Source: a virus
IMG/VR virus record: IMGVR_UViG_3300045988_159113
Reading direction: 5' to 3' (one strand)
DNA length: 64,000 bases
The notes under the pieces: model-generated
Seen by the model: the letters and a program-made list of their open reading frames with translations, nothing else
Databases searched by the model: none
What the model was told of the DNA's origin: nothing
In this document: positions 7,435 to 47,515 of the stretch, piece by piece
How the letters are laid out: the number at the start of each line of letters is the position of its first letter
How positions within the stretch are numbered: position 1 is the stretch's first letter
Position numbers and translations under genes: made by a program

Positions 7435-7438
7435 GAAA

Positions 7439-7476
7439 AGGACAAGTAGGAGAATATCCTATTTGTCCTTTTTTTT
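7439..7476. terminator. bidirectional terminator between the convergent arms
   Basis: AAGGACAAGTAGGA pairs with TCCTATTTGTCCTT (14 bp, one G-U pair), loop GAATA. A T8 run follows on the + side and a T-rich tract follows on the - side. Confidence 0.7.
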
Positions 7477-10400
7477 ACTTTTCTCTTTCGTTTCTAAAAA
7501 CGTCTGGTTTGATAGCATCAAATGCTGGCTTGAATTGTCGAGATGCAGAGAATGTATTGATACATCCATCCCAGAAATCTTCATCACCAGTTGCAATTTT
7601 TAACCAATTAGATACCTGTTTCCCAGTCCATTCAAATGCAAATGGCGTCCAGTTTGTGATTGGTGTACCGATTGAATCCATGAAATTAAAATCAAAAGAT
7701 GCATTCCTTAATGAAGCAATTGCAATATTAGCTGCAGACAAACCAAGTCCTGCCATAAAATCATCAGATTTTTTGTTTTCATTCATGGCATCTTTCAACC
7801 ATTCTCTAAGAAATCCTGAGATAATAGTTCCAAATAATATCCACATCATCAAATCTGTTGTGATCTGTTTGATGTTAGATCTGAAACGTTCGCGTACATC
7901 CTTGTTGGAATTATACCACATTGAAGAAAAACCTTCTTGAATAGATCCTGTGTCATACATTGACTTTGCCATTGTAGATAACTGAAGCATCACTCCTTCT
8001 CTCCAATCTCCTACCCATTTGTATACAGGATATCCCGTGTCTTCTGTTACTGGTTCAAGATCACGACGTACATTGTTATCTTTATCAACTTGATAGTATA
8101 ATTTTTCACCTGTCTCTGGTTTTTCTATCTATTTATAGTGTCCTTGCAAAGTAACGCCACCAGGAGCAAGGAATAAGTTTTTCTTACCAGACCAATACGT
8201 CCTGAATTGCATCCACATTGAGCCAATAAGAGTTGACTATATCAATGATTTTTTTTCATGGGAATAATATCCGTAGATATTATCCGCTAAAGATTTCATG
8301 CTCTCTGCTTGTTTATTTGTATAAGCTCTAGGTAGTGGTTTGAATTTCCCTGGCTCACGTACCCATGGATTTCCATTTTCATCTTTAACTCCTTCAAGTT
8401 CAAACTACTCAGCCATTACGTCATACAGCGCTTTTTGGTGCTTGTACATTGGATCCGATGTGTGCCCGTTTACTAACAAAGTGAATCGCTTATCTGCTTT
8501 GAAATCATATTTCAATACACCATCAACTAATTTGTGAGCATCAAGACATCCGTCAGCTTCCATCTATGACCCAAAGATAATGCAACGATTATAGTAATCA
8601 GGACGAGAAGAAAACTTCATCAAGAAATTTGTAAAGTTATGAATTCCAAATCTGTCTGATTTAATCTTGTCACCATATGTGTTCATATCCATATCATTCA
8701 ATCCATATAATTCATTGATTTTCATAAATAATGTTGGATGAGATGAATCTCTAAACATATCTGCATACACTAATTTTGCAGCTTTAGTCATATTATGAAA
8801 TGTGAATGATTGATTTCCATCTGGCTATGTAATAAACAAACGAATATCTGTGAATAATCCCTGTAACATCTGATAGAAAAACTACACCGGAGATAACGCC
8901 AAAGTAGCTAGAGATGCAGCATAACGCAATGAAGTCAATTTCTCAGCCACACCTTGGTATCTTGGATCAATAATAGATTGGTTGAAAATTTTATTCATCA
9001 CATACTCTTTCAGGTACTGCCTATCATTTTTAAAACCAGAAGGATCATTTTGTAATGCAGCAGACATTGTTAAATGAATCATTGCTGCTTTAATCATTGG
9101 GAAAACACTATCCATATTTTCTTTCATAGAATATGCAAGATCGTGTTTTATTACCAATGTCTCAAGGTTATGCTCTATGTTAGCAATGCCACCCATATCA
9201 GCGATTCGTTTAATTCTATCAGGACTTTCGTCATTAGCAACGTTGAATCGGTTGATCATCTGGTAGAAATTTTCATTTGCCTATTGCTGTTTTAAATCTT
9301 TACTAGCTTCAAATACACCTTCAGCTTTCATTCTCGCCTATTCCCATGCATACTTAGGATTTAAATATCTGAATATTTCTTTGATATTAGATAATAAGCC
9401 CTTTTGAGAATGTTTTGAACTTTCTGATGCAACTTCAAGGGGAACACGAAAATATCGAATATCATGTTCATCTCTCATCTTTTGAAGTTCAGATTCTGTA
9501 TAATTACTATACCTGTTGTGATTTATCTCATTCAATACAAATTCAAGAAAATCGCGCTCTTCCTAAGTATCTAATGTGCTAGGATCAACAAAAACAAAAT
9601 CTCCGTCTGGAGTGTGTTGCGTCATGTTCACATATAGATCTGTTTGGTTTCCCAACGTGTGAGTTTGTAAACTTCCAAATCCCTTTGCCTTTTTAAGGTT
9701 TTCAACAAGCTTGCTTATCTTGATCATCTTACGTTGCATATCATCTCGAGTTAGCTGATATGCTTGTGTGACCATTTTAGTAATAGTATTTAGAGTTTCA
9801 CTTGAAAGATTTCCAGGGTTATCTGTATATGTTCCAGATATTCCTTTTGTTAATATATTCGTACTTTCTAACCATTTAGAATGATCCCTGAGCTATTGTC
9901 TGAATTTGATTCCTCTTTTATCTGCTAAAGCAATAATAACCTGATTATATAACTGCATATGTTTCTTTTGTAAATTTGAATCTTTTACACTTTCTGTATC
10001 AGCAGCAAAATCATTTTCAAGCCTTTTTCTTAATTTTTCAAGTTCTCGAATTTGTTGCTCTGGGTTTTCAATTGCGTCATAAAAAGAACTGAGCGCATCT
10101 GTATATCCTGCAAATTGATAAATTTCTCCTTTGAAATTACTTGCTTTTCCTTCCTACATTATACTCTTAAAAGTATTAAATGCAAGCTGATATTTTGATG
10201 CAAGTTGTATATTCCCATTTTTAAAATTATCAACTTCAATTGGATCAATATCATTCAATGCTTTCCAGTTGTACGCAAGCTCTTCATTGGATAATGCTAT
10301 ACCATAAGCTGATCCTGGATTCATTACTTCGATACCTGTAACTTTTACATCACCAACGTCACCAAGAGCATTCAACAATAGCATTGTTTCTATGATTTCA

Positions 10401-12268
10401 ATATTACCAATTGTTGCTTCAGCAATAAGAGAGTCAGCTTGAGACTAAAAATACACATCATCTCGTCCAATACCAGCGCAAAGGTTTTTCATAATGCCAA
10501 AATTCTTTCCTTTATTACCCTCTGCTTCCTAGAAAGTCTTTGCATTATACAAGCCATAGTCAAGATTTTGTGTGGAAATTCTTTTGATATCCAATTCATT
10601 TGTTATAACATTACGCAACATGATAACACCAAACTACTCGGCTGCATCGCAATCAACAACTTTCCATTGCTTATTGCAATACTTTGCAAATCGCTCTTTG
10701 AACCAAGTTGCAGATAATCCGTGATGATTTGCTGATGCACTTGGGAATTTTACTTCTGATGTTTCATTTTCAATTCCCTCTTTTAATGCTGCAACAGTTG
10801 CATCATATTTTATCATTCGAAGGTTTCTGTCATCTTCAATGTATTTCTTAACCTAAGCCATCAGCGTTGCTTCTGCATCAGGTCCGGCTTTAACAACAAA
10901 AGTCTTTCCAGAACCTCCTCCATATGTATATGAAAGGTTGCCATCTTTATTTGGAGTGAATCCACCAGCTTCGTTTATTTTATCTCTTAGCCATTTGTCG
11001 TCAACCTTTCTTCTATCTGAATATGTGGGAAATAATCTTGCCATTCTATCTTTTACCTTTGTTAGAATCTGATCTGCTGGTATTGATATGCTATATTTGA
11101 ATGGTAAAATTTCATTCAAGTTTGCTTGTGTCCTTTCATTAGTTAACTATACAGTGATATCTTTCAATCCCTCAGTTTTACAATTTTCAAATGAGAATTT
11201 GTCTGTTGTTTCATCTAAATGAAAGCCATCCATCTGAATAGGTAAAACATAAGCCTTCTTGTCTTTCATGCGCAAGCCTAAATCGGACAACATTCTTTGA
11301 TATAAACCAATCTGATGAAACACTGTAATTTGTTTTGCGCTTGAATAATCAGAGAAAGCGTGAATAGATGTTTTGTAATCCACAATGTGCGTTTGTCCGT
11401 GTTTATCAATAACTACCAAGTCAGCAATACCATAGAGTTGTTGTGTGCATTTTGATGCGCCAATATGCGATTTAGCAGTCAAAGGCATCTCGGTGTAAAA
11501 TGTCAATGGACCCTACAACGAACTATTCAACTAATCATAGAATGTTTTTGCAATATCAATAACCTATGAAATCTAATCTAAAGATATACGTTCTGCATTC
11601 TCCGGTTTTAACATTCCATGTATCTTGCGACGGTCTGCATCTGAATTTGCGCCTAATGTCTACAGCCTTATCTTATATTCTTCGCTCTCGCCAGATACTT
11701 TCTAAAATAACAGTTGCAAAACTTCATGGATAGCAGTTCCGGTATACGCTTGTTCTTTCCATTTCCTTGTTATTCTTTTCCTGTAATCTTTGAATGTCGC
11801 ATCATCTCCTTTTGCTAATTTATGAGTTGTGCCATCATCTCCTGGACCAAACAAGTATTCAGCAACATCTTTTGAATATTCACCTTTTTCGAATTTTTCA
11901 CGAAGATTTTTCCACAGATTATCAGAATTGAATTCAGGGACCATATGATCTCCATTGATATTTCGAACAGCACCTAGAAATTTATTCACACCAGTATAAG
12001 GAGCAACTTCGCCATTCAGAAGGTTTCCATCATCATCGAATTCAGCCCTATTTGAATGCATGAACTCATTCATCTTTTTACGCAATTTGGATGTCTCTTC
12101 ACCATGTTTTTTTATCAGTTCATCCGCCTTTATTTGCTGTTCGCTAATACTGAAAACAAGATCTTTGTATTTAGCATACAGCTCACCTTTCTACATCAAA
12201 AAATCTTCAAGTTCAAGTTCAGATGTGAAAGGATTAATTCTTCCTTTTATATAATATACACAAGCCAT
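7475..12268 (-). CDS. 1597-aa giant protein with N-terminal RecB/Cas4-type PD-(D/E)xK nuclease domain and C-terminal hydrophobic segments
   Basis: One frame runs from ATG 12266..12268 (GGAGG about 10 nt upstream; TAATG overlap with the upstream gene) to TAA 7475..7477. It contains 23 in-frame TAGs and no TAA/TGA (hand-scanned). Motifs: GTAIHE, IADLVVID, IVDYKT, QIGLY. Confidence 0.8.
11300..11740 (-). other. PD-(D/E)xK nuclease core motifs
   Basis: GTAIHEVLQ (11723..11740), D in IADLVVID (11420..11422), DYK (11372..11380) and QxxxY in QIGLYQ (about 11300). The core is interrupted by six in-frame TAGs. Confidence 0.65.
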
Positions 12269-13341
12269 TAGTCACACACCTCCTTTAATTGTCCAGATTT
12301 AAGCATTGCTGATTTCATATTGTTCAATTTTCTATGTATAGAACTATCTTCTAATGGAAAAGAATTCACTGATGTCATCTTTGATGAATTGACTAAATCA
12401 GCAATTTGTTTCAATGAATATTTCCCAATATCCTATAGTTTAAGATCTCGTATTCCAAAAGAGCCTTCTAGCATTGTATCTATCATTCTATTAACCTAAA
12501 ATTGAACTTGATATGCAATATCAGGATCTATAGAATCAAATACAGATTTCTGGCCAGTTATAAATTTAGAGTATTCAGTCACAAAGATTTCTTCATTTAT
12601 ATCATTCCTTGATCTGTTAGGATATGTGCGCGCCATTTTCTCATAATTAGGAAGCTATTCGGATAAAGATATGAGTTGCATATAAAGATCAGGCTTTGCA
12701 AACCTTAGCTATCCAATAAGCATGTGAGACAATTCATGTATAGGAGAATCAACAGAATAGTTGTTCATGTTTATATATATCTACCCATTTAGAATGAATG
12801 CTTTTGGATTTGGATCTACTGCTATCACATCTTTAAACATTGGATCATTATGCAAATCATGCAAGTATACCTATTTGAAATGTATACCATACAAAGTTGC
12901 AAGTTTTCCAAATGCTGTATCAAGTATAATTTTAGAATTAACTTCCTCGTCAGGCTTGTATCTAACTTCAAAATTATTGTTGTATTTACTTGGACGGTGT
13001 GATATATTAACAATTGATGTTTTATTTAAAGGTAAAATATCAAATTCCAAATCATTATATGTATCTTGAGTATTTAATAATACAACAGCCTCATCAACAG
13101 TGTCAACCTGAAATTTATCTGTCAATTTAGATGTTTCTGTTGTATTGTTTTCTCGCAGCTCTAAAAATTCACGAGCATGCTCAGTAGTATCAGATCCATC
13201 TATTTCTGCTGGAGTCGGCCATCTGCCATTATGCTTGTCAGCATAGTCGATTATTTCTGCTTCAAGAAATAAATCAGAGAGACCGGTCCTCTCACTCAAG
13301 GACCGGTACTCATAACTTTTTTTATTTATACATGCATTCAT
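12268..13341 (-). CDS. 357-aa zincin-like (HExxH) metallopeptidase
   Basis: ATG 13339..13341 lies 2 nt after the TGA of the upstream gene. It ends at TAA 12268..12270 and has six in-frame TAGs. The motif SPIHELSHMLIG places HELSH at 12724..12738. Confidence 0.7.
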
Positions 13342-13343
13342 TT

Positions 13344-16300
13344 TCAACAACCATTTTGTTTTTTCTTTTCTTGGGCTTTTATTACTTTAATTAGTGTATC
13401 TCTACTAATTGTTGCCGTCTTTTTATTTCTGCTTATTATGATCGGATTATTTCTTCCTTTTAACTGTTCAGCTGGAATTTTACGAACTCCATCAGAGAAT
13501 TCAATTTCAAAAGAACTCAATTTTCCTGCATTAAATTGTACAGAAATCCTTGGATAGTATTTTCGTTTTTTGCCATCTTCCTATTGTTCTATTTCTTCGT
13601 CTGGACGTTTTCCAAGTTCAATTAATCTTCTACTATCGCCTATTTCTTCAAGATTAATATTCTCAGAATCATTTTCTGGTTTATTCATATCTATTTTTTT
13701 CTTGTCAAACGTCAGCTTCTTTTCTCCATTTTCATATGTAATCTTTACAGCGCCATAACCAAAAGTGTATGATGATTCCATTACATCATTACGATTTCTG
13801 ACATCATAAATTTTGTGATAACCATATTTGTCTTGATCTGCGGCATAAATAATGATGAGATCTTCGCCATTTGGACCTGTGAATTTTACACGACTTGATT
13901 TTTGTAAAGAACCAGTTCTGAAGTACTAGGTATCAACTTTGGACCTTATTTCTTCAAAATTAGAATCATACCAATTTGCCCTTCTGATTTCTTCCGTGTA
14001 TTCGAAATCATATGGTACATCGTAATATTCATCTTCATCGTAGTAACTGTTTCCTTTTTTAGAAAAAGCATCCATATTTCTCAATGTTGTCCATTCTCCA
14101 GTATGCGGATTGCGCTTTCTAACATATCCACTGTTTGCTGTCTTTGCACTAAAAATAGGAACAACATAAGGAAGAACATCTTCCACTTTTATGTCAGCTG
14201 TATTGTACCCAACAGTGTAGCGATCGCCATGTTTATCTGCTTCAGCAATGAATTTCTCAAGTTCAGAGATTATTCTTGAATTAGAAGCATCAACCAATTT
14301 TGTGAAAGTATTTTCACCTAAATTTCTGCGCTAGGCAATTATATTATAATATGCAAAAATATCATGTATAGGAATACCTCCATATGCAACAGTGCTCAAT
14401 CTCATGTATGCATTGACATATTTGTCAAATATGTGCTAATCTATTTTCTCTCTTGGAGATAGATTGATTGTCGGAATAGAGTAGTACAACTCTTCATTAT
14501 GTGAAACCGTTTTGTTTGACGATACAACACCAAGACCTGCAACAAACTCATTTCCTGAGAATTGTGCTTTCAAATATGGGATAACATCCTATTCAACCCA
14601 AGCTCTAAACGATGCATTGTTGATATCAGAACCAAGTACCAACTCAATATCACCTTCCGTCTATATAGAATTGCCATCCTAATCAAAAACGGTTCCACCT
14701 TTTGGAATCTTGAACTTCTAGTTCTTTGAAACAAGGAACTCATCAAGCATAAGATCATCATAGAATCGCCTCAATCCTTTAATTATATCTGTATCAGATA
14801 CAGATGATAATTTTAATTGAGTCTTTACTTTTTTGTAATTATCCAATCCAAAGCGATACTTTGCAGATCTCAAACTTGCTCTAGTGGAAACTGTCAATGC
14901 CTTCAAGAATCCGTAGACATCCTCTTTCCCGAAAATGATTGCGAGAGAATTGAATGCAACTTTTTTGTTTTCAAAATCTTTGATTGCTTTATCTCTTGCT
15001 TCTTTATTGAAAACAAACTGTTCCAGATCGATAGCATTATCAACACCAAGCATTTCTTCAAGAGAAATCAGCATTCTATCTGACGAAATTTCTTCGTTTT
15101 TAAGACCTTGGTTCAAACTCAGAATCTGACCAAGAGTTTTCATCTCTTGTGCTCCTTCGAAAAGTTTTTTGAAATCTTTGAACTCTTCTTTATGTGCATT
15201 AATCACTTCTGCTTGAGTCACGTATGTGATTAACTCATCAATAGCATAGCAAACTTTTGCACTGAAATCTGTACGTCCAGCTCCTTTTCGTGCTTCTATA
15301 TATTTAGCTTTTAGTTCATTCAAGGAAGCGATTTTTTTCTCAGGTGTATCATCTTGATTTTTAGACATTACAGCTTTTTTCAATATTTCTTCACCTCCCG
15401 CTAACTGACATAACTCTTGATATACAGTTTTCTTTGTTCTCTCTCCATTTTGAGACATGAAGTTGTATTTGCGTTTCAAATAATCCCATGGTCCTTGTTC
15501 TAAATAACTAAATACACCAAATAACGTATTGAAAGAATCAGTTTGATCCGTGAAACTGTTTGCTTGCAAAATCTATATGGCAAGATCTCCAACTGGTCCC
15601 ATTATGATCTTTGTAAGTGTATCAACTGGAACTCCAATCGTTACACCAAAGATATACATACCTAATGTTGCAGGATTTGCATTCAGCTTGTTCAAGCTCA
15701 AATCCTTGGCATTATCCACAGATAAACTCAATAATGCACTGACAGCAAGAGCAGGATCATTCTATGCTCCTGCATCAAGCAATTTTCTCAGCAATTGAGC
15801 ATTTAGTGTATTTGGAGATTTTGGTCTTACGTCAGAAGGCAGGCCATAATGTCTCCCGTTTATTGTTATATTAAAATACAGAGAATTTTGTCTTGGGTCT
15901 TGATCTGAATTCATTATCAAATCATAGTAGTACTATATAGCAGACAATGCTTTCAATCCAACAGCAGCAATAGAAATACAATCCTTACCAACTTGGTTCT
16001 CAACAATACCATTTGCTTTTAATGTTACAGAACCAGGTTGTCTGTATTCAATATCGTTTTTCTTAGATGTATCTGCAATTTCATTCCATTCATCCTTACA
16101 ACTATCAATAGGCGTTCTTGATTCAATCATATTCGCAGGATCTTTTGATACTTCTATCATGGATGATATCGTGATATTGTTTGCAATCTATCTTTGTACA
16201 TGCGGAGATTTGATCCTTCTCAAATACAAATTGTGTTTATTGAAAATATACAGTAATGAATTATTGAACTTTTTAATTAGCTCTTCATCAGAAATACCTC

Positions 16301-19300
16301 TTGTACTATCAACAAATCCGTACTATTCTAATGTATCACGCAAATCTTTTGTGTCTGAAGTGTTTAGTTTTATTAACTTTGGTACAGTCTTCAACAATGC
16401 TATAATACTTGGAATGTTGACTTTCTTATCTAATTCAAAGAAGATATGTTTCTTGTCAGATGGTTTGAATAACCCGCCAAACTATTTGAAATAAGTAAGA
16501 GCTTCATTTGCACTCGTTCCATCCAAGTATTCAGTGTCATCATTAGAAGACTACATGTTATTTTCGCGAATCTTATACTCAACAGATGATGGAGCAGGAA
16601 TTCTTCTTGACTGCTGAATTTCCTCGTATGTATCATATTTTGCATACGGTGACCACAAATACAGCTTTCCTCCTTTATCAACAGAGTATGTAGCTAATGA
16701 TACAGTATCAATATCATAATCAGAACCTTGTAACCAAATCTGATCAGTAGATACGAATGCATTATTTACGTCACTGTCTACAAATCCAACCACACGCATG
16801 GGCATGAAAGAGTGCTGACACTATGCAGGAATACGAGATGCTACAATATCAAGTGTTGTTTTAAAAGATGCATACATTCTCAATCCTTCTGTTCTAAACT
16901 TTTCCAGTAAGAATTTCGAGGAGCTGCTAGACATAGATTTCAAATAATCTTTGAATACCTCTTTGATTTGTGCGCTCTCGCTGCTGTCTTTCAATTCATC
17001 TATTATATTGTTAAGCTATTCATTTGTTCCTGATTCATATACAGAAAAACAACGATCAATATACCGATCTATATTTGTATCATCTACATTGTTGCCCAAA
17101 GTTATATAGCTGTATTTGATATTATCCAAATAAAGTTCTGGATTATCTGTGACTATAATCTTCTGGCAGTACAAGTTATCCACAATAATTTTGTCATCAT
17201 TTCCAATTTGGAATAATTCTGCACCATTATCACTCAGCAAGATTTTGTTTCCGTTTATATCTATAGTTGTGCGTGGAGATATTTCGTGTACATCTTTGAG
17301 TTTCTTGGCATTAGCTTTGCTAATAATATAAAAATGTTCTCCTGTGATATTTTTGAGACATATATCATACAAATTCTTGGAAAGGATACCGTCCCAGTTA
17401 TCCATTAATCTTTTACCAAAAAATCCTAAATAATTAATATCATTAGTTGGTGTTTCGTTTTCTATGAAAGATTTAGATTCATAAGAATCCAAAATATTAG
17501 ATACTGAATCGCCTGCTTTTAATCCGTAAACAGTTGCCATAACTTTTGGCATCACAACTTCATATGGATCACATTCAACTGTTGATCTATCTACATCAAC
17601 TTCTTGTCCGTTTATTTTTACACGAGTCCGATTTGCAACAATCTGCCTCAAGATCTCTTTTTGCAAATAGAAAAATTCTGGTGTAAGTTCAAGGATTTTC
17701 CCATTGATAGTCAATTTACGTTCACCTGTTCTTCCAAGTACATAATTTACCCAGTCGCGAACTCTATCACAATATGCGATTGTATTATCAAAACCATCAC
17801 ATAATTTGTCAAATTCAGACAACAAATCCGCAGTGTTTTGCGATAAATTATTCAAATCATACTGCGATTCAATCCTAAGTTTAGAATCAATTTCTTTTAC
17901 GACTTTATTAAATCTTTCTTTGTCAGAGATTACTCCATAATCAATACCTACTGTTTTGATTCCAAATGATATCAACTCATCAAAATCTGGCTAATCTGAG
18001 GATTTGATTTTTTTGATTATTGATTTCAGTTTGAATAAGTTGCGAATTGAATCAATATCCATAAGCTGAAACTTATTTCCAGAAGTATCTCTGAATATGT
18101 AGTTTATACTAGACAATTCGTGTCCAGCATTAGCAACCTCTATGACTTTAGAAATTTTTCCTTCGTTAATCTATTCAGTTAGAGCGATATAATCTTCTGC
18201 TGATGTAAGCTTTTTCACCTTAATTCTAGCACGGTCATATATCTATCTTGCTTTTTCCTTAACTTGTTCATTCGTCAAATCTTTATTGAAATGTTTTTGT
18301 AATGCTTCATAAATTGAAAGTTCAACATATTCATTGAATGTTTGATCAGGCTCTCCGAATATTTCAAAAACATCTTTCAGATTCTACAAATCAAGTAAAA
18401 TTTGAGACCCTTCTATTCTGACACCTTCCTTTATATTTTTTCTTGTATCTCGAATTCTTATGATATCAAAATCATTGTATTTGGTAACATTCTCATCGTA
18501 TTTCCATAAGTTGGGTATAATTTTGTATGTCTTACCAATACGGATTCGTGATGTATCTATCTTCTTGAGTTTTGAATCAGATGCTAAATCAATGCCATTC
18601 TCTTGCATATATTGTTGCGATTTCATTTGTGAAATATCAGCAACATTTACATTGTTTGTTGGCTTTACCTTTACAACTATATCTCCTGGATTAGCATCAA
18701 TTGAATCACCAAATTTCTACTCTACAAGTTCATCCTTACCGATAGCATAGACAATTGGATCTTCAAGAATTTCGTATTCAATATCATTTGCATCATACAA
18801 CAAATCACCTTTTCTGAAGTCAAAACGATCATTGCTGTCTTTGAAGTTGAATGACACGATCATCGTATTATCTTCGCTGTTCTATTTGAACGATTGAAGA
18901 CCTTTGACGTTATATTTACGTGGAACTTTTACAGGTCGTTTCTATTCCAAGAAATGATTGTTTTTCTCTTGTAAGTTTTCACGAAGTGGGTTGTTATCAC
19001 TGCGCATAATAACAGCAATATTTTTTGCTCTAGTCAATGCGGTATACATCAGCTTGGATTTAACGTCATCTGTTGTCCGTTTGTTATGCATAATATCATC
19101 ATGCTGAATAAGGACAACATCATAAGTAGAACCTTGCGCTTTATGTACTGTTGTTGCATAAGAAAGTCCAACATCAACAGCATCATTGTCTTTCATCCAT
19201 TTTTTCAATCCTGGATTATTTTCTATAAAACGCTAGCCAAATTGCATTTCAGGTATTACAGTCAAAGAAACCGTATTGCCATTTGATAGTTCTACCTATA

Positions 19301-28300: not shown

Positions 28301-28535
28301 ATTTGATTATTGGCTCTGCAAGTCCAATAAAATCATCAACATGATCTTTTATGTCTGGGCTAGAATTCAAAATGTTTTCTCCGATATGTTTGCATATTGT
28401 TTGTGCCCAAGCAACAAATTTTTTTTCTGGAGTTGAATTCTATTTCATTACGTCCATAAATATGGACGTGCTGCCCATTAAAGTGGTACGAACAACAGAT
28501 TTTGCTGTTTCTTCATTAAATTTACATTTATTCAT
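13344..28535 (-). CDS. 5063-aa giant multidomain protein: SLOG-like motif, Dda/RecD-type SF1B helicase core and beta-prime-like DxDxD RNA polymerase catalytic loop
   Basis: One frame runs from ATG 28533..28535 (first ATG after in-frame TAA 28551; 11 nt after the upstream gene's TAA) to TGA 13344..13346. Every gap between track ORFs was hand-scanned: 66 in-frame TAGs and zero TAA/TGA. Confidence 0.8.
16707..16721 (-). other. DYDID (DxDxD) metal-binding motif of a two-barrel RNA polymerase
   Basis: The reverse complement GATTATGATATTGAT encodes DYDID. Context: IVASRIPA[TAG]CQHSFMPMRVVGFVD..NNAFVSTDQIWLQGSDYDIDTVSL. This parallels bacterial beta-prime NRAPTLHRLGIQAFEP...NADFDGDQMAV. Confidence 0.65.
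19023..20240 (-). other. SF1B (Dda/RecD-like) helicase core inside the 5063-aa ORF
   Basis: Motif I GKAGTGKT (20217..20240), II VVLDEISM, III LLLGDKGQLP, V ATTVHKAQGSTYD, VI YTALTRAK (ending at 19023). The motifs are in canonical order and are separated by seven in-frame TAGs. Confidence 0.75.
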
Positions 28536-28545
28536 ATCATCAATT

Positions 28546-37500: not shown

Positions 37501-38685
37501 AAAACGCCTCTCTGCAGCTGTTTTATATGCTTTTTCTATTTCTGCTGCTTTCTTCATTTGCCTTGATTCACTAGCGCCACCAATACCTTTGAAAAGAGCT
37601 GGTGCTTTCTCAAACAAGAAACGTTGTTCTTTTAGCTATGCTGCAACATCTCCTATCAGATTGATCCAGTTTTCAAGACACCAAGTGTTTTCCTGTGCAT
37701 ATTCACTTTTTGCCATCTGCCTGTTTAAAGACTTAGACCAACCTTCCATTGCAGATAATGTTGGACTATCGCTTCCAACAAGGATCTTACCAAGTGTTCC
37801 AAATAAGCCAACAGCTTGTGTTGCCACAGATAATCCGGCAACAGCTGGTCCAACATATGGAATGAACATGGTACCAACCAGTGCAGCATTTTTCAATAAA
37901 GTTTTGCCAACACCATTTTCTTCAAGATTATCAGAATCAAAAAAGTCGTATTTGTTCCAATCTGAACCGTCAACTGTTAAGGTATTCAATTTACTCAATA
38001 CACGCCTACCATAGATACTTCTGCCATCAAGATTTTCATAATAGAACGTGCCATTGTCATTGAGTTTCAAATCTCCTTTTTTATGTTCAATTGTTTCTCC
38101 GCTTATAGGATCCTTATGTGTTCCATCTTCGTCCCATTGTGCAAGCACACGAGTATCAAAGAAATCAGTGAAAAAGCTATCATTTGGAGAATCATGGTAA
38201 ATCGGTGCTGCGCCATTCTCAACTTCAACTGGATTTGCAAGTACTTTTTCTGCTTGCGCTATTTCATCAATTGACTTTGTCCTTTTACCAGGTTTACCAA
38301 GTTCGGCTATGCTGCTAGTAATTTGATAAGGATTTGACGCTTTGACAAATTCAGAATCAAAATCATCTCTCCTTTGCTTGTCAGGTGCGAAAAAGTTATC
38401 ACGATGAAATGAAACAAAATTTGAAAAATCCTGTTCTTGTTCCTATGTTGCCATTACATTATACATTGACAACACATTATCATAGAATCCTTTGAATTCT
38501 TTTTCATTAAAATTCCCACTTTCTGTTTTAAAAGCCTACTGTACCAATTCGTTACTTTTGTATTCATCGTAGTCTTTTACAGTGCTATTGTCTGCAGTAA
38601 TTCCAACAGTCTATAAATCACCCATGCTAAGGGTCGGATTTACGAGCACGTTAAGCAGCAAATCATTTTTCTTTTCCTCATTCAT
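28546..38685 (-). CDS. 3379-aa giant protein: N-terminal glycine-zipper/hydrophobic segments, coiled-coil-like region, second SF1 helicase core, Pro/Gly/Ser/Thr linker
   Basis: ATG 38683..38685 lies 3 nt after the upstream TGA (TGAcatATG). It ends at TAA 28546..28548. It has 36 in-frame TAGs and no other stops (hand-scanned). Confidence 0.8.
32776..32970 (-). repeat. low-complexity Pro/Gly/Ser/Thr linker (GC-rich, internally repetitive)
   Basis: Encodes APTTQGSTPGSGPTPGSGPSPAPGGSPTPGTGPTTSVPGSGPSPAPSSGPSPSGGTGGG. An approximately 18-nt unit, aggtgctggagatggacc, occurs twice. Confidence 0.8.
33208..34203 (-). other. second SF1 helicase core
   Basis: Motif I GGPGTGKT (34180..34203), II IIIDEISQ, III IISGDTNQS, V-like GTSAQGSEGKYYIV, VI LYTAQTRSE (ending at 33208). 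The core spans the TAGs at 33994 and 33730. Confidence 0.65.
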
Positions 38686-38688
38686 ATG

Positions 38689-40608
38689 TCAAAGTTTTGA
38701 AGGATCAACATACCTTGCTTTTACATCATCTTTGTGTTTAGTTATCTATTGCTATGTCTCTATTACCTATGAATATGCAGGAGGTAACTTCTCACCTGAT
38801 CCAGATTGGGCAGAGAAATAATCAACTTTGACTGGAACAAATACGGTTCCTTTGTAATAGTGATCATGACCATTCCAATCGTACCAGTTATCTTCATCAA
38901 ATTCAAATCCTCCTTCACCATCTTTCTCCCAGTTATTCGCTTTCTTAATTTGGGCTGTGATATTTTTGATTCTATTGTCATCCTTAATCTCTTCCAGATA
39001 TTGATTTTCATCAAAATCAGCATCACCCATTGCCTTATCATATGCTATAGCATTGATGACTCCAAATCTTCTCCATGCTCCATTTTTTATCAACTGACCA
39101 GTCTTGTCATATGCAACCGGCAATTGATGTTGCTGATATACTTGGTTTATTTCGTCGACATGCTCAGCAATCTATTCTGGACTATTCATCAAGATACCTT
39201 TTTCTCTAAGTTCCTGATCAGCTTTCGTCTTCCTTTGCATAGCATCAAAATCTGGAGCAATCTCTCCTTGCTGTGCTTTCTCTAAATCAATAGGCATATC
39301 TACAGAATGAATAACGCTGTCATTGGTCAACACTTGATTCATTGTTTCAGGATTGAGTTTTTGACCGCCAATTGATGCATTAGTCCAATCAAGTATTCCT
39401 GTATACTGACTTTTTGTAATATCCTATATTGTTGAAATAGCGCCATATGGTGTGCCCTCTTTTGACACAATTGGTAAATCATTACCGAAAGTTTTAATGC
39501 CATCCACGGTTTGGTTTTGAATAACAAACTAGCTTTTGTTTCCGTAGCCAAGCATCCACTATGTTGCCACATTCATATCCTATCCATCTTTTGTTGCAGT
39601 AGCTTTTGCTCCTGGCTTATTTCCTGTTGTATCTTCTACAAGATTGCGATCAATAGTTTGTTTTGAAGATGTCGTCATTCCGACCTTCTGTCCAATGATG
39701 ACATTCTTGATATAATTCAGCGCTTCTTTATCACTTGCCTTTCCGCTTTTAATATGCAGCAACTATTTCGCATTTTCTGGCAATTGGTTATATATATAAC
39801 TGATTGCTTCCTGTGCTTGTCTTGCCTGTGTCTCTGTTAAAGATTTAATCTTATACAAGCCATCAACAGAAACAGACGCAATATCTTCGCCATTGTATGC
39901 CTTTTCAACAAGAGCCTATAAAGCTTGCTGTCTTTGCTATGTCTTTTTTGATATGTACTGACTTGATGATTCTTCATCTTTCCCTAGACTCATCATGTAC
40001 TATTTGATAAGTTTGTCAACTTGCTCTAACCCAATGCCATTGTTGACTATTTCCATTACCGTATTATCATATGCTGAATTTTTATTTTGTGCTCTATAAT
40101 CCAACAGATTAGAATTTGTGTAAAGGCTATATTTGCTTGGGTCCTGCAAATATGTTTCTATCTTTATTGGTTTAGGCTCATTTTTTTCGTTACGAACAAA
40201 CACATATCCTCCTTGTCCTATAGCAACCTCATTTAGGCCCTTGTTCTAGCTCACAGTCTTGTATGCTTTATCATATTCCTGTTTATTAAATTCTGCGCGT
40301 TTAAGGTCATGCATAGCACTAAGATATTGTGTCGATAAATCACCAGTGCTTATTCCGAGATCTTGCAAGTCAAAAAACCTTGACAATCTGGAGTATATCT
40401 GTTCCATATCAGAAGGTAAACCTTTAATATTTCCAAGAAGATTCATCAAGTCCTTATTCGTAAGTTGTCCCTTGTCTTCTTTTGTTTTTGTTGTAGTATC
40501 ATCGGTTTCCACTTGTCTGGATAGTCCCAAATCAACAGTCACTGGCCTATATACTGAGAACGGGGGCATTGATCCCCCGCTCTACATCTAGTTAATTTTA
40601 TATATCAT
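38689..40608 (-). CDS. 639-aa virion-block protein (alternative start at 40569 gives 626 aa)
   Basis: Same frame as the 3379-aa gene but closed by TGA 38689..38691. ATG 40606..40608 forms an ATGA overlap with the upstream gene's stop. It has 13-15 in-frame TAGs and no recognised motif. Confidence 0.65.
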
Positions 40609-43600
40609 TTTATGAATCGTTTAATTGCATTCAATTCATCCTTTGACAATCTATCTATTGATTTTGATAATAATTTGCAACTATCAGCTATTTGCTTTGC
40701 AAGTCTATCATTGTTACTTTTTGATCTTTTCACATCAGTATCATCTATTTTTATGCCTTTCTTTGCTTCTGGTATACCTGTAACAGTATAGCTATCAATC
40801 GATCTCTTCGTGGGTGAACCAGAACGCAAATCCATCATATTGTATAATTTCAAGCCCTTTCTCTTAGCCAATTCATTATATATATCAATCTTGTCTTGCA
40901 GTCCTTTTGTTGCTTCGTACTATTGCAATTGAAGCTTCCTCTTGTAGAATTCCTCAGGTGAAATATTCGGATCAAGCAGCGATTTCTTCAGCTTGTTATA
41001 TTCAGGTCTGCTGTTCATCCATTGCTAGAAATTAAGTGGCATCATTATACTATCATACTTGTTTTGTGCATATTCTTTCTTTTGGCGATCTTGCGCCCAA
41101 AGCGTTCCACGCGTATTTTGAATTGCACCAAGATAATTCTGCGTGCTGTCATTGTCATATGCAATATATGCTGACTTTGCCCTTGTCTTATTGTTTGCAA
41201 GTTCTGCTAATGCAGCACTATTCTATGTCTATGTCTTGAGATTATCCTGATATACATTTTGATTCAGACTGAGCTAATTTTCACCAGTCTTGTACATCCG
41301 ATCATTATATATAGCATTGCCCTGCATATTCATCTTACCAGCTGTACTTGCACCTTCAAGTGCTGCCGCATTGTTTATATTTGCATCAGATGACTTTGCT
41401 TTTCCAGCTTGTGATTGAATCTGTGCGCCTTGCTATCTTTGACTCTCTTGACCGAGGTAATCACCATATGTATATCGGTGCATGTTCATCGGATTCTTTA
41501 ACGAAGTCCTGATGTTCAACATTTCCTGAAGTCTGCGCTTGTTATTCTTTCTGTTAGAAAGATAACGACCAAATCCAAGTGCATCGTATGCAAGCTTATT
41601 CATATTGCCATCAAGATAGGTTCGCACTTTGTTGAGCCAATTACTACCTTCGCCTTCTCCATCTCCACCAGTATTGAATCCACCACCGCGTCCGGTATTT
41701 TCTCCAGTAATCTCTCCAGCTGCAGGTTTTGGTTTCCCTTCATTCATTAATGAATTAGCCTGTTCTTCTGTTAACTTTGCAATATCACCATTGGCTTTTT
41801 TATATACATATGCAGTTTCACCATTTGACAATTTAATAGGATGAATTCTTGACATCTTACCTTCAAGTGTATCCTTGTCCCACTCTGTCTTATATCGGTC
41901 CATTCGACGCATCCAGGTTTGGGTTCCCATTGTGTCATCGATATTGTCCTGATATCCAATGTTCCAGTTTATACCTCTATTATTTGAATTTTGGCTTCTA
42001 TTATAGAACATCTATTTGAACAATCGGTTGTGATCTTGTATATTCTGGCCTTTATCGGTGTTTGCACTGTATGCCGTATCTATAGTTGAGCCATCAGGCT
42101 GCACACCCCAGAAACTCCTGATCTTACCAGCATCTGTGTTGTAATGACTTATGAAATCATCGATATTGTCAGTGTTATATGCTGTTTGATAGTATCGCTG
42201 CAAATCATCGCCTACTATATCTGCTTGTGATGTATATGCGTCATTTTTTGCAGCAGCCTGTCCAAGATCGAAATTTTTATTGTGATCATTTGCATTCAAA
42301 TCAGAATTTGCAAACTGGTTCCTATTTCTAAGATTTGCATTTCCAAGATTCTTCTATTTCCACAGGTCATTATACCATGCCCAATCTTCTGGGTTCTGTA
42401 CAACTTTATCTCCGTCTGCAGCCTTTAAGATGCCACCTTTAGCGTTAGATGATATGGCGGTGGAATCAATATCATCTGAGGTAAAATTTACGTCACGCAA
42501 AGATCTCATGCGTTCAAGAACACCACCATGCTTAAATGGAGGTGCTGTTGTTGTACTGCCTCCAGCGGGTGTTGGTGCAGTAGTAGCTGATGGTGGCGTT
42601 GTTGGTGCAGCAGTTCCTCCAGTTGGAGCTCCGCCTGTTGTTGGCGTGGTAGTAGTACCGCCTCCTGTGGTGGGTGTCACTGCAGGTCTCGGCCTTGGAC
42701 GTGTTGTTCTCGGTGCTTTTACTTTAATCTCTATTGAATCATCGGCATTCATGATTCTATCCATCAAATTGTCAAGATCAACAAATGAACCACGCTTTGC
42801 TTTCCTTATCGCATTAGCAAATTCAGCTTCAATGTCAGCTACTGTTTTACTTGTTCCGTGAACTTCTTGCAAAAGATAATTTTCTATATCGATTTTTACA
42901 TCTCTGCCATTCACATCATGCAAATTTTCTGGAAGCATATCTTTTAATCTGTCAGTCACAACATCAATATCTCCAAGAATCTGATTTTTCTCTGTTTCAG
43001 TTTTGACGGTCAATTTCCCTTTTAGCTTTGTGCTTAATTTATTATTAGCTGCGGCAATCTAACTTTTAGCAGCATTTTCTGCTCTTTGTGCGTTTGCTTT
43101 ATTTATTGCGTCCTTTGTTTGAGCTCTACGTTCAATAAACTGTCTTGTTTTTGTATTGAGTTCATATTCACTCATATCTGGATGTCTTGTTTTCAGATTA
43201 TCTCGTCTTGCTTGTGCGTATGTCTATATTTCTGCAATTTCGTCAGGATCGAAACCATAGCTTGCAACTTTTCTGGCTGTTGCTTTCTCTGCGGCTTCAT
43301 CAGTACGTATAAGTCTTAACTCGTTCTGTATATCTATATCTGTCAATGCAGAACCTGTTCCAGTTTTAGAAAACTCATCATTGTTTTTGTTTATATAATC
43401 ATTGAGTTTCTGCTTTTCAGAATTTGTCAATCCTCCACGTGTAGCCTCTGCTGCTTCTAAACGGTCAAATGCTGATTTGTTAGCATTATATCTATCTCTT
43501 AAAGCTCTAAACTCAGCCTCTGATACGGTAGAGCCAGCCGCTCTTGCTCTAAGCTCTGCATTATTAGACATTTCTGAACCAGCTGATGCCTTCCATGCTT

Positions 43601-46600
43601 CAAGCTCGCCAAGGGATTTTGCAGTATCAAATTTAGTTTGAAGTTCTGCGTTTACAAGTGCAGTATGCGTAGGATCATTCGATAATTTATAAACAGCCGT
43701 GACATCAGAATCATCAGCTGCTGCTATACCATTGCGACGTGCATAATCAGCAAGATCATTCAGTTTTGTTCTTGATGTAGTAGTAGCGTATAAATCATCA
43801 GCTATCAAATTGCCGGCTGCATCTTTTGCACCATATGTTCCAACTCTTCCCTCAATGAGTCTTTGATTTGCAATTTCTCCAGACTTCAAGCCTCTACCCA
43901 TATCTTCGCGAAGCATCAATGCTATATCTATGTCATCAGCATATCTTGGCGTTGCTGCGTTCGGATCAAAATTAGGATCAATCTTGCCGGAATAATATTC
44001 ACGAAGTGCCTTCTGCTGTTCAGGATTAAGACCATCAAAAAGATTGTCCATGATCTTTGGACCAGCTCCTGCAGTTCCTTTCAGATATTCTTTCGCAAGT
44101 TGTGTCTTCTTATATTGAGGCTGTGGGCCATGCACTCTTTCATAATCTGCTATATAATCAAGCACTGGCTGCTTATCTTTTCTTGTTCCAAACCAATCCT
44201 GGAATTGCTTTGCATCATATGCTTTTGTTCCGGGTTTTCCAGCCTGTTTTTCAATCTCTCTTTCAGTTATTATTTTGTTATCGAGCATATTATCAGTCCT
44301 TGTTCTAACTGCTCCCATGCCACGCGACATTTCAGCATTGGTATTGAGGTAATCCATGGCCCAACCTAAACCTTTACCTAAGTATGCGCGATCAGCTGCT
44401 CTTTGGCCAACTCTCATTCTAAGATTGCGCAATCCATCGGCAGTCTTTGGATCATAAGCGTACCCACTTTTAGTTTTCATTCCATCCCAGAATCCAACCT
44501 CATCGGTAAAGTCTCCAATCTTCGGACCACGTTTGAAATGACTTGTCCAACCTGTTGCCTTAGTCCAACCATCAGGCATAACAACAGGAGCATTTGGATT
44601 TACACCAACAGATATATCATGAGCTTTTACTTGGTTCAATCCTTCAAATTTAGATTTGGCAGCATCAAGTCCAGCAACTTCCTATAATTCAGCAAGTTTT
44701 GTATCATATGCTGTCTTTTCTGCAGCACTCAAACTTGATATTTCAGTATCGGCAGGCTTGCCGATTCCTTTCATGACTTGATCTTTGCCTATTGCATCAG
44801 CTGCCGTCTTATATGCTGAACGCATATTCTTTTGATCCTATACGCTCAGTTTTATTTCTGCTGCATTACCGTCTACATCAACCATATTCAAAACTTTTGG
44901 AGATGTAGGATCAGCATTGTTTGTCAACCAATTGCCAGCATGGACATCATCACTCCAAAGTACATTTGCCTAATGTCTTGTGTTAGAGTACTACAATGCT
45001 TGTTCTGGAGTTCCTGCTTTAGCCCAAGCTTCACCGACAGCCTTATTGACACTTTCTGATGTTGCGCCTTCTGCTTTTACAGCTTTATCAAAAGCTGCCT
45101 TCATTGCTTTCTTCTGCTTAGCTGATACTTTTATCTCGTTGCCATTAGCATCAGTGAAAAGGAAACTATTGCCACGTCCTGCGCCTTCTGATGTTGATGC
45201 CATAGGCTGATAAAGACCTCTAAATGCAGCCTTCGCATTTCTACCAGGAGATAATGCAAGGATAGGATCACTGACAAACGCTGCTGCTTTTCCTGCTATA
45301 TTATTGCCAAATTTAGCTGCAGCTTGTCCAGACAGTGATTTGGTACCAGTAGCAGCTCCGGAAGCCATAGAATAATAAGCATCAAGTTCTCGTGCTTCTT
45401 CGTGAGAAAGCGTGCCTGCTTTATCCTTTGCTCTCAACTCCTTGATTCTATCGAGATTTGACAGAACATTGTAAGCACCCAAGCCTGTCATTCCGAGCTG
45501 TGCTGCTGCCTTTCCTGCTTTTACAAGACCTCCACCAGGTATGAGCATCAAGCCGGTCATTCCTGCGTTTATAGCAAGGTTGCGCATCATCTCACTACGC
45601 GATACGCTGTCATCCATTGCATCAGCTATTAAGTTGCCGACTGTTCCAGCTGTTCCTCCAATGGCACCTATAGCATTACCAATAACAGGAACAAAAGAAG
45701 CAATACCGCTTGCAATATCAAGGTTTGTGCTCCATTTGCGAAGAGATGAACCTTTTTGAGTTCCGGCTTTTTGCTTGCCTTTCTTTACATCTTCAACAGA
45801 CATATTCCTGGCCTTAGCTTCTGCTTCGTATCTCAGTTCACGTTCTGCATCGTTCTACTGATTAGCTTGCTGTCCAAGAGCTGCAAGATCATAACCACTA
45901 GCAGCTTTGATAATTCCACCTGTACGCAAAGCTTCAAGTTTAGCACCATATTTAGCCCAGACATGAGCGCCTCCAGCTGATGTTCTACGACGTCTTGGAT
46001 TCTTCTTTTGATATTCAGATTTTAGATACTGGTATAAAAGTGGAGTTTCTGAATCACTCACATGTACTCTAGAGAATTGTTTTGTTTTCTTGTTGTACAT
46101 CAAAGCGGTTCCGTTCTCGTAGTTTATTGTTTTGTTAAGATAGAAACGATCCTCGTCAACAGGCGTGATATAAGAAGGATTCTTTTCAAATTCCATCATG
46201 ATACCACGCAAAATATTAGAGTTGGTCATTCCATTGGGGCCTAATTGGTTAGGATTAATACGCTGTCCATTCATAACCAACTCGAGCAACTTATCTGCAT
46301 ACTGTGCGTTTCTCTGATCAGAAAGCCAAGATGGTGTAGAATCAGCCTCGCTAGTTCCAGAAATGCCGCTCCATTTATCATGCATTGCCTGATCCCAAGC
46401 TCTGGTATCAAGTTGCTGCTCTTCATTGAATGTGTCGCCTGTCCATCCCCAGTGATTGTTTGCCCAATTCTAATAGTTGCGATTGTATGTTGCATCTCCG
46501 TATTTTCTATCTTTCCAATCTTCCGTGAATTCCTGAAGTGCTGCACGGTACTCTTCTTGAGTAATAACTCCTGCCTTGAGCTCTGCATCAAGCTCCTTCT

Positions 46601-47447
46601 TCTTCATCTTGAGCTGATTATTGTATGATTCAGGATCATCATCAACTTCCTCTTCTTGACCATTGCCAAGTAAACGTTCACGTAATGATCTGCCAAATCC
46701 TATAGCGTCTAATGCTGTTGCATCATTATTGTCGTATGTTCCATCTGCTAATGATGCGGCTGCTTCTGCGAGCTTCTGCTTATAATCTGCAAGATCATGG
46801 AATGCACTACCCTGAAAATCAAACGAGTCATCGTTTAGAGTTCCTGCATAATCGGTAAGCATCTGTGCAAGAGCGTTTGCTCTATTTGTATTACCACGTA
46901 CTCCATTATCGTCTAATGCATCACGATCAACCCAAGATTGAAGATCTGCATCCTCATTTCCGCCATAGAATCTATTCCAGAAATATTTTCTAAGAGCGCC
47001 AAAGTTATACTTTTCTTTTTCTTTAGCTTTAGGTGCTTCATATTGAGGCGCTGATTCCAAAATCTTGTCTAACAAGCCAAGACCATATGATTGCATCTTG
47101 TTATCATCTCCAAGAAATGTTCCAGAGTAGATCATACCATCGCCACGTCTCAAAGACCCATCACGCAGTCCTTGCTGGATTTTTGCAGCTTCATTCAAAA
47201 ACTGATTATATTTCTTGCTGCCTCTACGGAATCCTATATGCTCAGCAAACAAAGGAATATTCTTTTCGTAAAGTTCTGCAAGCTTAGCAGCATCATATTT
47301 CCCACTTGATGTCTAAAATAATACGGGCTGCTCTTCATCGGAAACGGGGGCCTCTACAACTACCTATTCCTTAGGCACAGATGGATCACTTCCAACTACC
47401 GTTCCGCCTGTTTGTAATTTTTTAATATATTGACTCATATTTTGCAT
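40605..47447 (-). CDS. 2280-aa giant protein with glycine-zipper/hydrophobic region and Thr/Pro/Gly linker (ejection or cargo-type candidate)
   Basis: ATG 47445..47447 is the first ATG after in-frame TAA 47448 and lies just downstream of a terminator. It ends at TGA 40605..40607. It has 18 in-frame TAGs and no other stops (hand-scanned). The segment IASGIASFVPVIGNAIGAIGGTAGTVGNLI...MTGLMLIPGGGLVKAG is glycine-zipper-like. Confidence 0.8.
42537..42713 (-). repeat. low-complexity Thr/Pro/Gly/Ala linker
   Basis: Encodes PRTTRPRPRPAVTPTTGGGTTTTPTTGGAPTGGTAAPTTPPSATTAPTPAGGSTTTAPP. This is a local GC spike that spawns spurious ORFs on both strands. Confidence 0.8.
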
Positions 47448-47454: not shown

Positions 47455-47486
47455 AAAAAAGGAGGTATAAATTATTATATACCTCC
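47455..47486 (-). terminator. rho-independent terminator after the small GC-rich gene
   Basis: On the - strand, GGAGGTATA-TAATAATT-TATACCTCC forms a 9-bp stem followed by TTTTTT. It lies 30 nt after TAA 47516..47518. Confidence 0.75.
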
Positions 47487-47515
47487 TCCGTCCTTAAACC
47501 ATTAATTTCTATTTA

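Follow-up and report, generated by a model that had tools for sequence, protein, structure and literature searches.

A crAss-like phage gene block with a helicase-bearing segment in the middle of its predicted RNA polymerase

Little is understood of how the giant virion polymerases of crAss-like phages begin to transcribe the DNA that enters the cell. The question is raised by a 64,000-nucleotide stretch of viral DNA (IMG/VR record IMGVR_UViG_3300045988_159113, referred to below as the window), in which six consecutive genes, g1 to g6, fill positions 7475-47447 of the minus strand. One of them, g4, supplies an uninterrupted, selection-tested predicted polymerase of 5063 amino acids (aa), with a helicase of superfamily 1B (SF1B) and about 1,200 other residues between its conserved halves. 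What kind of block is this, and what might a helicase be doing in the middle of a polymerase? A first-pass annotation, made from the letters of the window, had taken the locus for a crAss-like giant-gene block built around an RNA polymerase of crAss type, with an HExxH module beside it, and in this it was borne out. As analyzed here, the block is of a known kind, and its one unusual feature is the segment of about 1,640 residues, bearing the helicase, that lies in the middle of the polymerase.

When TAA and TGA only are taken as stops, six co-directional open reading frames (ORFs) are found, with exactly the lengths first annotated: g1 (40605-47447, 2280 aa, 18 in-frame TAG codons), g2 (38689-40608, 639 aa, 15 TAG), g3 (28546-38685, 3379 aa, 36 TAG), g4 (13344-28535, 5063 aa, 66 TAG), g5 (12268-13341, 357 aa, 6 TAG) and g6 (7475-12268, 1597 aa, 23 TAG). 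Together they make up 62.5% of the window, as against the 62% given before, and Pfam searches and inspection of motifs placed all of the modules named at that time where they had been reported. All features of the block described below lie on the minus strand.

The predicted polymerase g4 and its insertion

A first search with the C-terminal third of g4 retrieved 13 proteins, and a profile search 204, typically of 3,100-3,800 aa and encoded on contigs of 100-197 kb. Two parts of g4 belong to the polymerase, an N-terminal part (aa 1-1784, window 23184-28535) and a C-terminal part (aa 3427-5063, window 13347-18257), the latter with the string RIPAQ..HSFMPM...LQGSDYDID. The DxDxD motif, here DYDID, occupies aa 3939-3943 (window 16707-16721), and aa 3898-3943 read SRIPAQCQHSFMPM...LQGSDYDID, a beta'-like barrel signature; the RxPxQ..QS strand and the D-x-D-x-D columns are invariant in 61 aligned homologues. 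The most conserved block of g4 is at aa ~1200-1735, where K/R, DG and K columns are invariant, and within this region the N-terminal part probably holds a candidate beta-like barrel.

Solved structures were out of reach by sequence or profile search, and a region of P0018 (aa 1100-2299), the closest full-length relative of g4 (30% identical and colinear), was therefore modelled with AlphaFold2 (AF2). The model (pLDDT 78.5, pTM 0.75) had a sole PDB match at E<=0.001, 6vr4_A (E 4.4e-5, probability 1.0, 745 columns), which according to the title of the structure is the virion-packaged RNA polymerase of phage phi14:2; bacterial beta' chains came next, at E 0.07-1. Among predicted viral structures (Foldseek, BFVD) the same model matched crAss-like giant proteins. 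At the level of sequence, weak colinear BLAST matches connect the DxDxD region of g4 with crAss001 gp50, cr118_1 gp14 and the phi14:2 RNA polymerase, the last of these, in a small-database search, over about 100 residues around DxDxD (E 7e-4). When crAss001 gp45-gp50 were compared with g1-g6 by BLAST and phmmer, one marginal match was obtained, again at DxDxD. A local hidden Markov model (HMM) from the family alignment found nothing in the proteins of phi14:2, crAss001 or Suoliviridae, and tblastn with the conserved polymerase block found two unannotated faecal contigs only. Taken together, the invariant DxDxD and the match of the P0018 model to 6vr4_A uphold the original assignment, and g4 can be placed, at the level of motif and predicted fold, in the family of crAss-type single-chain RNA polymerases.

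It was also observed that the polymerase ORF of many relatives stops within the DxDxD motif at WLQGS-DYD or directly behind it, or else at a second conserved motif, LSALLSLATD (P0001, P0003, P0005, P0007, P0009, P0010, P0036 and P0049; also P0026, P0028 and P0037). These breaks recall the disruptions reported for Zeta phages; g4 is uninterrupted at both sites. In the C-terminal part of another relative, P0031, aa 2852-2994 match a cpYpsA SLOG domain (E 1e-22).

When g4 was aligned with P0018, aa 1-1784 corresponded to aa 1-1682 of the relative and aa 3427-4878 to its aa 1677-3142, which leaves aa 1785-3426 of g4 (window 18258-23183) as a lineage-specific insertion of about 1,640 aa. Among 123 homologues, aa 1200-1700 of g4 are covered in 119, aa 3700-4800 in about 100, and aa 1900-3300 in none; between the conserved blocks g4 has about 1,885 residues, compared with a median of 176 in the homologues. 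The ORF thus owes its 5063 codons to an internal, helicase-bearing insertion. That the helicase is located inside a mid-polymerase insertion was missed in the first-pass annotation and is the new point here.

The helicase itself, of the SF1B Dda/RecD-like type, occupies aa 2758-3177 (window 19005-20264). In Pfam, AAA_19 and AAA_30 are matched at aa 2758-2897 and UvrD_C_2 at aa 3115-3177 (E 1e-10), with Viral_helicase1 matched as well, so that both RecA-like domains are recognised. The motifs are intact (I, GKAGTGKT; II, DEIS; III, GDKGQ; V, HKAQGST; VI, TALTRAK) and are conserved in P0124, the relative described in the next paragraph. Among PDB sequences the matches were 9kwf_B (E 6.7e-9), RecD2 3e1s, 8jx6 and RecD 1w36_D, and the best tblastn matches were Dda-like and RecD-like helicases of jumbo phages, at 26-27% identity. 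The remaining residues of the insertion, about 1,200, belong to no recognisable family: three pieces of it gave nothing in Pfam at E<=5, and a word-indexed search of 5.8 billion proteins with the whole insertion as query gave no match.

When a TAG-free 275-aa piece of the insertion was searched exhaustively with HMMER against 1.84 billion representative proteins, one was retrieved, P0124 (5043 aa). The alignment of P0124 with g4 extends over the full length, at 38% identity overall, 30-39% within the insertion and 43-45% within the polymerase parts, and its gene stands in the same gene order as g4. When the insertion was compared with that of the related locus L007, 91 synonymous and 37 non-synonymous changes were counted, distributed 25/16/93 over the three codon positions, which indicates purifying selection. 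These comparisons indicate that the insertion is old, conserved and selected, and confined to a sub-lineage. A SLOG/cpYpsA-like DGQSG motif in the insertion (g4 aa ~2060-2100, window ~22240-22360) was considered as a further domain and discarded, being without support from Pfam or PDB sequences; the motif, in the form I-x-S/T-DGQSG, occurs also in P0124. The cpYpsA domain of P0031 is situated at a different place.

The other proteins of the block and the phage

The order g2 to g6 is kept in five distant relatives (L004, L005, L010, L011 and L012; 29-41% identity), in which a g2-like gene is followed by a g3-like gene (~3,080 aa, AAA_30), the polymerase, a g5-like gene (~352 aa), a g6-like gene (~1,590-1,630 aa, PDDEXK_1) and then convergent genes. 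In L004, L010 and L011 the g2 homologue (32-38% identity) stands in front of the g3-like gene; g2 itself has no significant Pfam match. No Pfam or PHROG match was found for g1, the families crAss_CARG1 and crAss_CARGO2 included, and by its position g1 is a candidate for an ejected channel or cargo protein. The hydrophobic stretches previously pointed out in three of the proteins are present. The one in g1 (aa 578-596) opens a glycine-zipper/hydrophobic stretch at aa ~578-660 (window ~45468-45716), that of g3 lies near the N-terminus (aa 267-287, window 37825-37887), and that of g6 near the C-terminus (aa 1469-1487, window 7808-7864). Low-complexity linkers rich in Thr, Pro, Gly and Ser were seen in g1 (aa ~1620-1680, window ~42400-42590) and g3 (aa ~1905-1965, window ~32790-32970), and may be flexible tethers or cleavage regions.

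In g3, a predicted SF1 helicase-like ATPase spans aa ~1490-1830 (window ~33196-34218). The N-terminal P-loop domain alone was matched in Pfam (AAA_30/AAA_19, aa 1490-1655, E 6e-9), and the homologue of L010 is recorded with AAA_30 as well. Its Walker A, Walker B, GDxxQ, QGxE and TR motifs are kept in the homologues of L010, L011 and L004 (32-37% identity over ~1900 aa), as are, in three relatives, the motif V-like string TSAQGSEG and the motif VI-like string YTAQTRS; phmmer and profile searches with this region gave no match among PDB sequences. The helicase-type modules of both g3 and g4, proposed in the earlier work, are thus backed by Pfam and by catalytic motifs that have been kept. The idea that the two are recent paralogues was rejected, their similarity being at the level of motifs only.

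The HExxH module of g5, a zincin-like HELSH, is at aa 202-206 (window 12724-12738). In 10-14 family members the motif and a D..EE that follows it show little or no variation, and in more distant homologues (P0111, P0106, P0109, P0092, P0087 and others) a module of the g5 type forms the C-terminal domain of the polymerase. No Pfam family matched g5, even at E 5. A structure model of the zincin-like module was built with AF2 on a relative; in its core, where pLDDT is about 70-87, a small sheet is followed by the helix that carries HExxH, and the best match in a fold search (Foldseek) was the metalloprotease MATCAP at E 0.47, which is not significant. Of the earlier designation of g5 as a protease, the invariant motif therefore stands, while neither Pfam nor the fold search lends it support.

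The RecB-type nuclease named in g6 is well backed: a PD-(D/E)XK domain at aa 172-364 (window ~11177-11755) matches PDDEXK_1 above the cut-off (E 2e-8), and also the exonuclease family phrog_69. Four relatives keep the strings GIADL, IVDYKTS and HQIGLYQR, and the H, D, DxK and QxxxY motifs are likewise preserved, so that the catalytic motifs are intact. Full-length homologues with PDDEXK_1 occur in all five distant relatives (29-41% identity), and a body of about 1200 aa is conserved besides the nuclease domain; no PDB sequence was matched by the nuclease region in phmmer and profile searches. Compared in this way, the g3 SF1 ATPase, g5 and the g6 nuclease appear as features of the whole clade and not as peculiarities of this genome. 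In L012, the only other genome with an insertion-bearing polymerase, the end of the block is faced by a convergent gene (25585-28443, minus) for a 952-aa HsdR-like type I restriction subunit with HSDR_N, ResIII and EcoR124_C.

The spacing of g1 to g6 suggests translational coupling. Most of the junctions are as they had been described, namely ATGA (g1/g2), TGAcatATG (g2/g3), TGAAAATG (g4/g5) and TAATG (g5/g6), but the gap between g3 and g4 is 10 nucleotides and not 11. The terminators that were said to bracket the block fared unequally. At 7433-7475, where g6 ends and the plus-strand genes converge on it, there is a hairpin with a 19-bp stem and a T-run, terminator-like in both directions (1 site observed, 0.4 expected from shuffles). 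At 47458-47489, 10 nucleotides upstream of the g1 ATG, a hairpin with a 12-bp stem and a T-run is present on the minus strand, but with 1 observed and 1.0 expected it is, taken alone, not above chance. A strong Shine-Dalgarno-like sequence, AAGGAGGTG, was seen at window 12271-12285 (minus), 8 nucleotides before the start codon of g6 and overlapping the end of g5; Bacteroidota, the usual hosts of crAss phages, seldom use Shine-Dalgarno sites.

To which phage does the block belong? A TAG-free gene of the window was found, with 100% identical surrounding DNA, on a source contig of 142,026 bp, Logan SRR31145710_996 or IMG/VR 3300045988_146335. For genes of this contig that are identical to neighbours of the block, PF24228 (CrAss_Ring_1) and, weakly, PF25731 (crAss_MUZ) are on record; they correspond in the window to a ring-protein-1-like gene (59769-60464, minus) and a gene for a muzzle-like protein of 2001 aa (52673-58678, minus). 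A direct match of the window gene to Ring_1 has E 7e-5 and 22.7 bits, below the Pfam cut-off of 27. The block lies a few genes downstream of the muzzle gene, which is the position of the cargo and RNA polymerase-associated genes in crAss001. In genome size, TAG recoding, want of BLAST relatives and the breaks of relatives' polymerase ORFs inside DxDxD, the phage is like the Zeta-group crAss-like phages (PMC7886860, PMC12386605); the likeness is drawn from these shared properties, since the window does not reach the genes for TerL, the major capsid protein and the portal. None of 50,697 phage records was matched by the g4 DNA in megablast, and PHROGs was almost blank for g1, g2, g3, g5, g6 and ten neighbouring ORFs. 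We consider it likely that the block is the 'transcription/cargo' module of a large-genome crAss-like phage of about 142 kb, probably of Zeta type, in which TAG encodes glutamine.

Several neighbouring genes were noted in passing. The plus-strand genes at 1-7434 include a fragment of an HNH endonuclease (1-579), metallophosphoesterases (1913-2611 and 4026-4637) and a DUF1599 'nucleotide modification associated' protein (2611-3441). Just upstream of g1, among tail-proximal genes, lies a 624-aa ORF (48112-49986, minus), of which the first ~350 residues resemble zinc-dependent alcohol dehydrogenases (phrog_2640, E 4e-40) and the C-terminal ~270 aa are rich in W, Y and K; for a dehydrogenase the location is odd. 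Variants 93-97% identical to the window, L002 (9990-13026) and L003 (4352-5560), carry a gene for a 402-aa HNH endonuclease that is not in the window (~59309-59772), and L002 has in addition an IS605 OrfB/TnpB-like gene (393 aa), likewise absent from it. These HNH and TnpB-like insertions adjoin the ring-protein gene.

Proposed role of the block and the alternatives

By analogy with phi14:2 and crAss001, the proteins of the block would be late products that are packaged in the capsid and are ejected before the DNA or along with it. By the same analogy, the hydrophobic glycine-rich segments of g1, g3 and g6 would help to build a passage through the envelope, and g4 would then transcribe the standard-code early genes of the opposite strand. 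Dda, RecD and other helicases of the SF1B type move along single-stranded DNA in the 5'-3' direction. The embedded helicase may accordingly be pictured as a tethered 5'-3' single-strand DNA motor that would open the incoming double-stranded genome or feed it to the polymerase. More speculatively, the g3 ATPase and the g6 nuclease might act on DNA ends, of phage or host, and g5 might trim the giant precursors. The toolkit proposed in the first-pass annotation, injected for host takeover or anti-defence and possibly matured by the zincin, is likewise a conjecture. We know of no characterised RNA polymerase with a helicase between its catalytic halves. That the helicase is a working part of the polymerase, so that the chain would be a self-contained motor for unwinding and transcription, able to open the entering genome and perhaps to draw it in without need of host factors, is a tentative proposal which we hold to be possible, though doubtful.

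Packaging of the block proteins into the virion is plausible from their analogues. The GenBank record of phi14:2 annotates gp076-gp081 as structural from tandem mass spectrometry, and mass spectrometry of crAss001 virions detected gp45, gp46, gp47, gp49 and gp50 (Bayfield et al. 2023, PMC10172136).

A number of points weigh against this picture of an ejected polymerase and its cargo. For g4, the second, beta-like barrel is a candidate only; phmmer and a 14-sequence profile gave no polymerase match among PDB sequences and did not reach phi14:2 gp66; and the fold match to 6vr4 was obtained from P0018, a protein 30% identical to g4, and not from g4 itself, with a low global TM-score (0.14). For g1 and g2, no match to the crAss cargo 1 and 2 families (PF25725/PF25712) was found at E<=0.01, the same models being matched by crAss001 gp45 and gp46 at E 2e-66 and 6e-219. 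For the recoding, no suppressor tRNA came to light, the window and ten related loci having yielded no tRNA gene at all. The presence of g1-g6 in the virion is argued by analogy, the role given to the helicase is a tentative proposal, and the passage of a 5063-aa protein of about 580 kDa through a tail is a demanding requirement.

The best-surviving alternative takes the block, or g3, g6 and the helicase at the least, not for virion cargo but for an intracellular DNA-processing and transcription machine of the RecBCD/AddAB kind, made after infection and serving recombination, replication restart, degradation of host DNA or anti-defence. Two SF1 ATPases together with a RecB-type nuclease are indeed the parts list of end-processing machines, the case for packaging in this phage is one of analogy, and crAss-like phages carry several PDDEXK nucleases without a known role (PMC7886860). 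The place of the genes speaks otherwise: they come directly after the tail genes, at the end of the TAG-recoded late/structural strand, and those proteins of phi14:2 and crAss001 that mass spectrometry verified in virions are placed in the same way. Moreover, g1, g3 and g6 have hydrophobic glycine-rich stretches of a kind suited to membrane insertion, and the characterised member of the polymerase family is, by the title of 6vr4, virion-packaged. We regard an intracellular machine as unlikely, although it is the rival to which we give most weight.

Less probable still is that the insertion in g4 belongs to the mobile elements, for instance as a very large intein or as an intron ORF in frame, and that it is removed at the level of RNA or protein and leaves the helicase as a separate product or as selfish cargo. 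It occupies a single point of the family alignment, many homologous ORFs break exactly at conserved motifs, and Zeta-type crAss phages are described as full of introns and inteins, their polymerase genes included (PMC7886860). Pfam, however, found no Hint, intein, LAGLIDADG or HNH domain in g4, nor any other homing-endonuclease family. The 1,640 codons of the insertion are free of TAA and TGA in four near-identical contigs and in P0124, their changes are mostly synonymous and at third positions as in the flanks, and the segment is conserved as a whole (30-39% identity) and not in its helicase alone. In addition, Suoliviridae fuse the same type of helicase to their polymerase without interruption. 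All this makes a removable element improbable, the intein reading was rejected, and a helicase that stays in the polymerase chain is the reading we retain.

The frames themselves were examined by comparison with three IMG/VR contigs (117, 142 and 197 kb) from one metagenome, 96.6-97.7% identical over window 8945-30345. Over all 5063 codons of g4 they showed no indel and no new TAA or TGA. Synonymous and non-synonymous changes in g4 numbered 235/105, 279/173 and 337/146, third-position changes predominating throughout. TAG amounts to 164 of the 13,315 codons of g1-g6, with no TAA or TGA inside. Between the near-identical contigs the commonest TAG exchange is TAG<->CAG (25 of 43), and in the relative L004, which uses the standard code, Gln stands opposite TAG at 21 of 71 aligned sites (30%), against a background of 4.4%. 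Most of the plus-strand genes at 1-7434 are without in-frame TAG. These results indicate that the six frames are real, selected genes, and, judged from the codon comparisons, that TAG behaves as glutamine in the late genes, a reassignment like that of code 15; reassignment of TAG is documented for late genes of crAss-like phages (PMC7886860). L004 itself, a 178-kb contig, has 0-1 TAG in its g3 and g6 homologues, and its g3 and polymerase homologues are split over several genes; L005, L010, L011 and L012 are TAG-recoded like the window, the g3 homologue of L010, for example, having 57 TAGs.

The view that the giant frames are an artefact, of assembly or of reading through a TAG that is a true stop, so that the block would consist of ~170 small proteins or pseudogene debris, can draw on the standard-code ORFs of the block, the longest being 485 aa, and on the missing suppressor tRNA, but is dismissed in both forms, the standard-code one because homologues of 3,100-5,043 aa align across the TAG positions, Gln occupies 30% of the aligned sites in L004, TAG<->CAG leads the exchanges, 13,315 codons pass without TAA or TGA, and recoded late genes are on record for this phage group (PMC7886860).

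Comparison with known systems

The first impression that nuclease and helicase modules inside such giant proteins are new to this phage group has to be corrected. For the nuclease, Yutin et al. (2021, PMC7886860) had earlier described a PD-(D/E)XK domain within one of the large proteins of the transcription block in crAss-like phages, and a review (PMC10136315) repeats the report and gives polymerase genes of up to ~6,000 aa. According to PMC7886860, Zeta-type phages have genomes of 145-192 kb with almost no BLAST matches to known phages, and their transcription block resembles the present one in the PDDEXK domain of a large protein, in reassignment of TAG or TGA, and in the breaks at DxDxD, seen here in the polymerase ORFs of relatives. 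Unlike that description, g4 is uninterrupted over 5063 aa, and an insertion of this kind is not mentioned in the available text of that paper.

The single-chain polymerase of phi14:2, gp66 (PDB 6VR4; gp077 in GenBank, 2180 aa), carries DxDxD as g4 does, and the giant late genes of that phage (gp077 and its neighbours gp076 and gp078), as here, end against convergent early genes that include a metallophosphatase. The phi14:2 giants, however, are of 1421-2180 aa, have no Pfam helicase or nuclease and are not recoded, and sequence similarity to g4 is confined to about 100 residues around DxDxD. In crAss001, too, the block comes directly after the muzzle gene, and a first protein with a transmembrane segment is followed by three giants, one of them with DxDxD. 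No helicase or nuclease could be recognised in its gp47, gp49 or gp50, and its block is split over two strands, unlike that of the window.

The helicase of g4 finds its best matches, at ~90% coverage and with the same motifs, in the Dda-like and RecD-like helicases of T4-like and jumbo phages (RaK2, 121Q and others), but these are free replication and recombination proteins of ~410 aa and not polymerase domains. Although no description of helicase domains in these crAss giant proteins was found in the literature, RefSeq holds two Suoliviridae proteins that combine a DxDxD polymerase with an SF1B helicase, and the polymerase-linked helicase is for this reason not new either. They are cr118_1 gp14 (4946 aa, annotated 'exonuclease V') and cr50_1 gp059 (4774 aa, 'DNA helicase'). 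DFDID is found in them at aa 3209 and aa 3154, respectively, and AAA_30-type SF1B helicase domains at ~aa 4250-4910, with UvrD_C_2 also matched in cr118_1. As in g4, one chain of ~5,000 aa thus carries a DxDxD polymerase and a complete SF1B RecD/Pif1-like helicase, and the helicase of cr118_1 is homologous to that of g4 (E 9e-20); PDDEXK was not detected in the next gene of cr118_1. The Suoliviridae helicase is C-terminal, ~1,200 aa after DxDxD, whereas that of g4 lies ~750-1,200 aa before DxDxD, within the insertion, and this difference in position points to independent fusion or to rearrangement. Other crAss polymerase ORFs are annotated as DprA-like, DUF1768 or ART-PolyVal, and from these accessory domains it would follow that domain shuffling is common in the group and that polymerase-helicase fusion is recurrent. 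What sets g4 apart, as far as the sequences compared can tell, is that its helicase is internal, before the DxDxD barrel, and that the inserted segment is so large.

The insertion of g4 and the C-terminal fusions of Suoliviridae, considered side by side, suggest that crAss polymerases have repeatedly recruited a DNA motor, which is a testable hypothesis on early transcription or genome entry. If the helicase is indeed part of the polymerase, then the independent couplings, internal in g4 and P0124 and C-terminal in Suoliviridae, would mark a recurrent solution.

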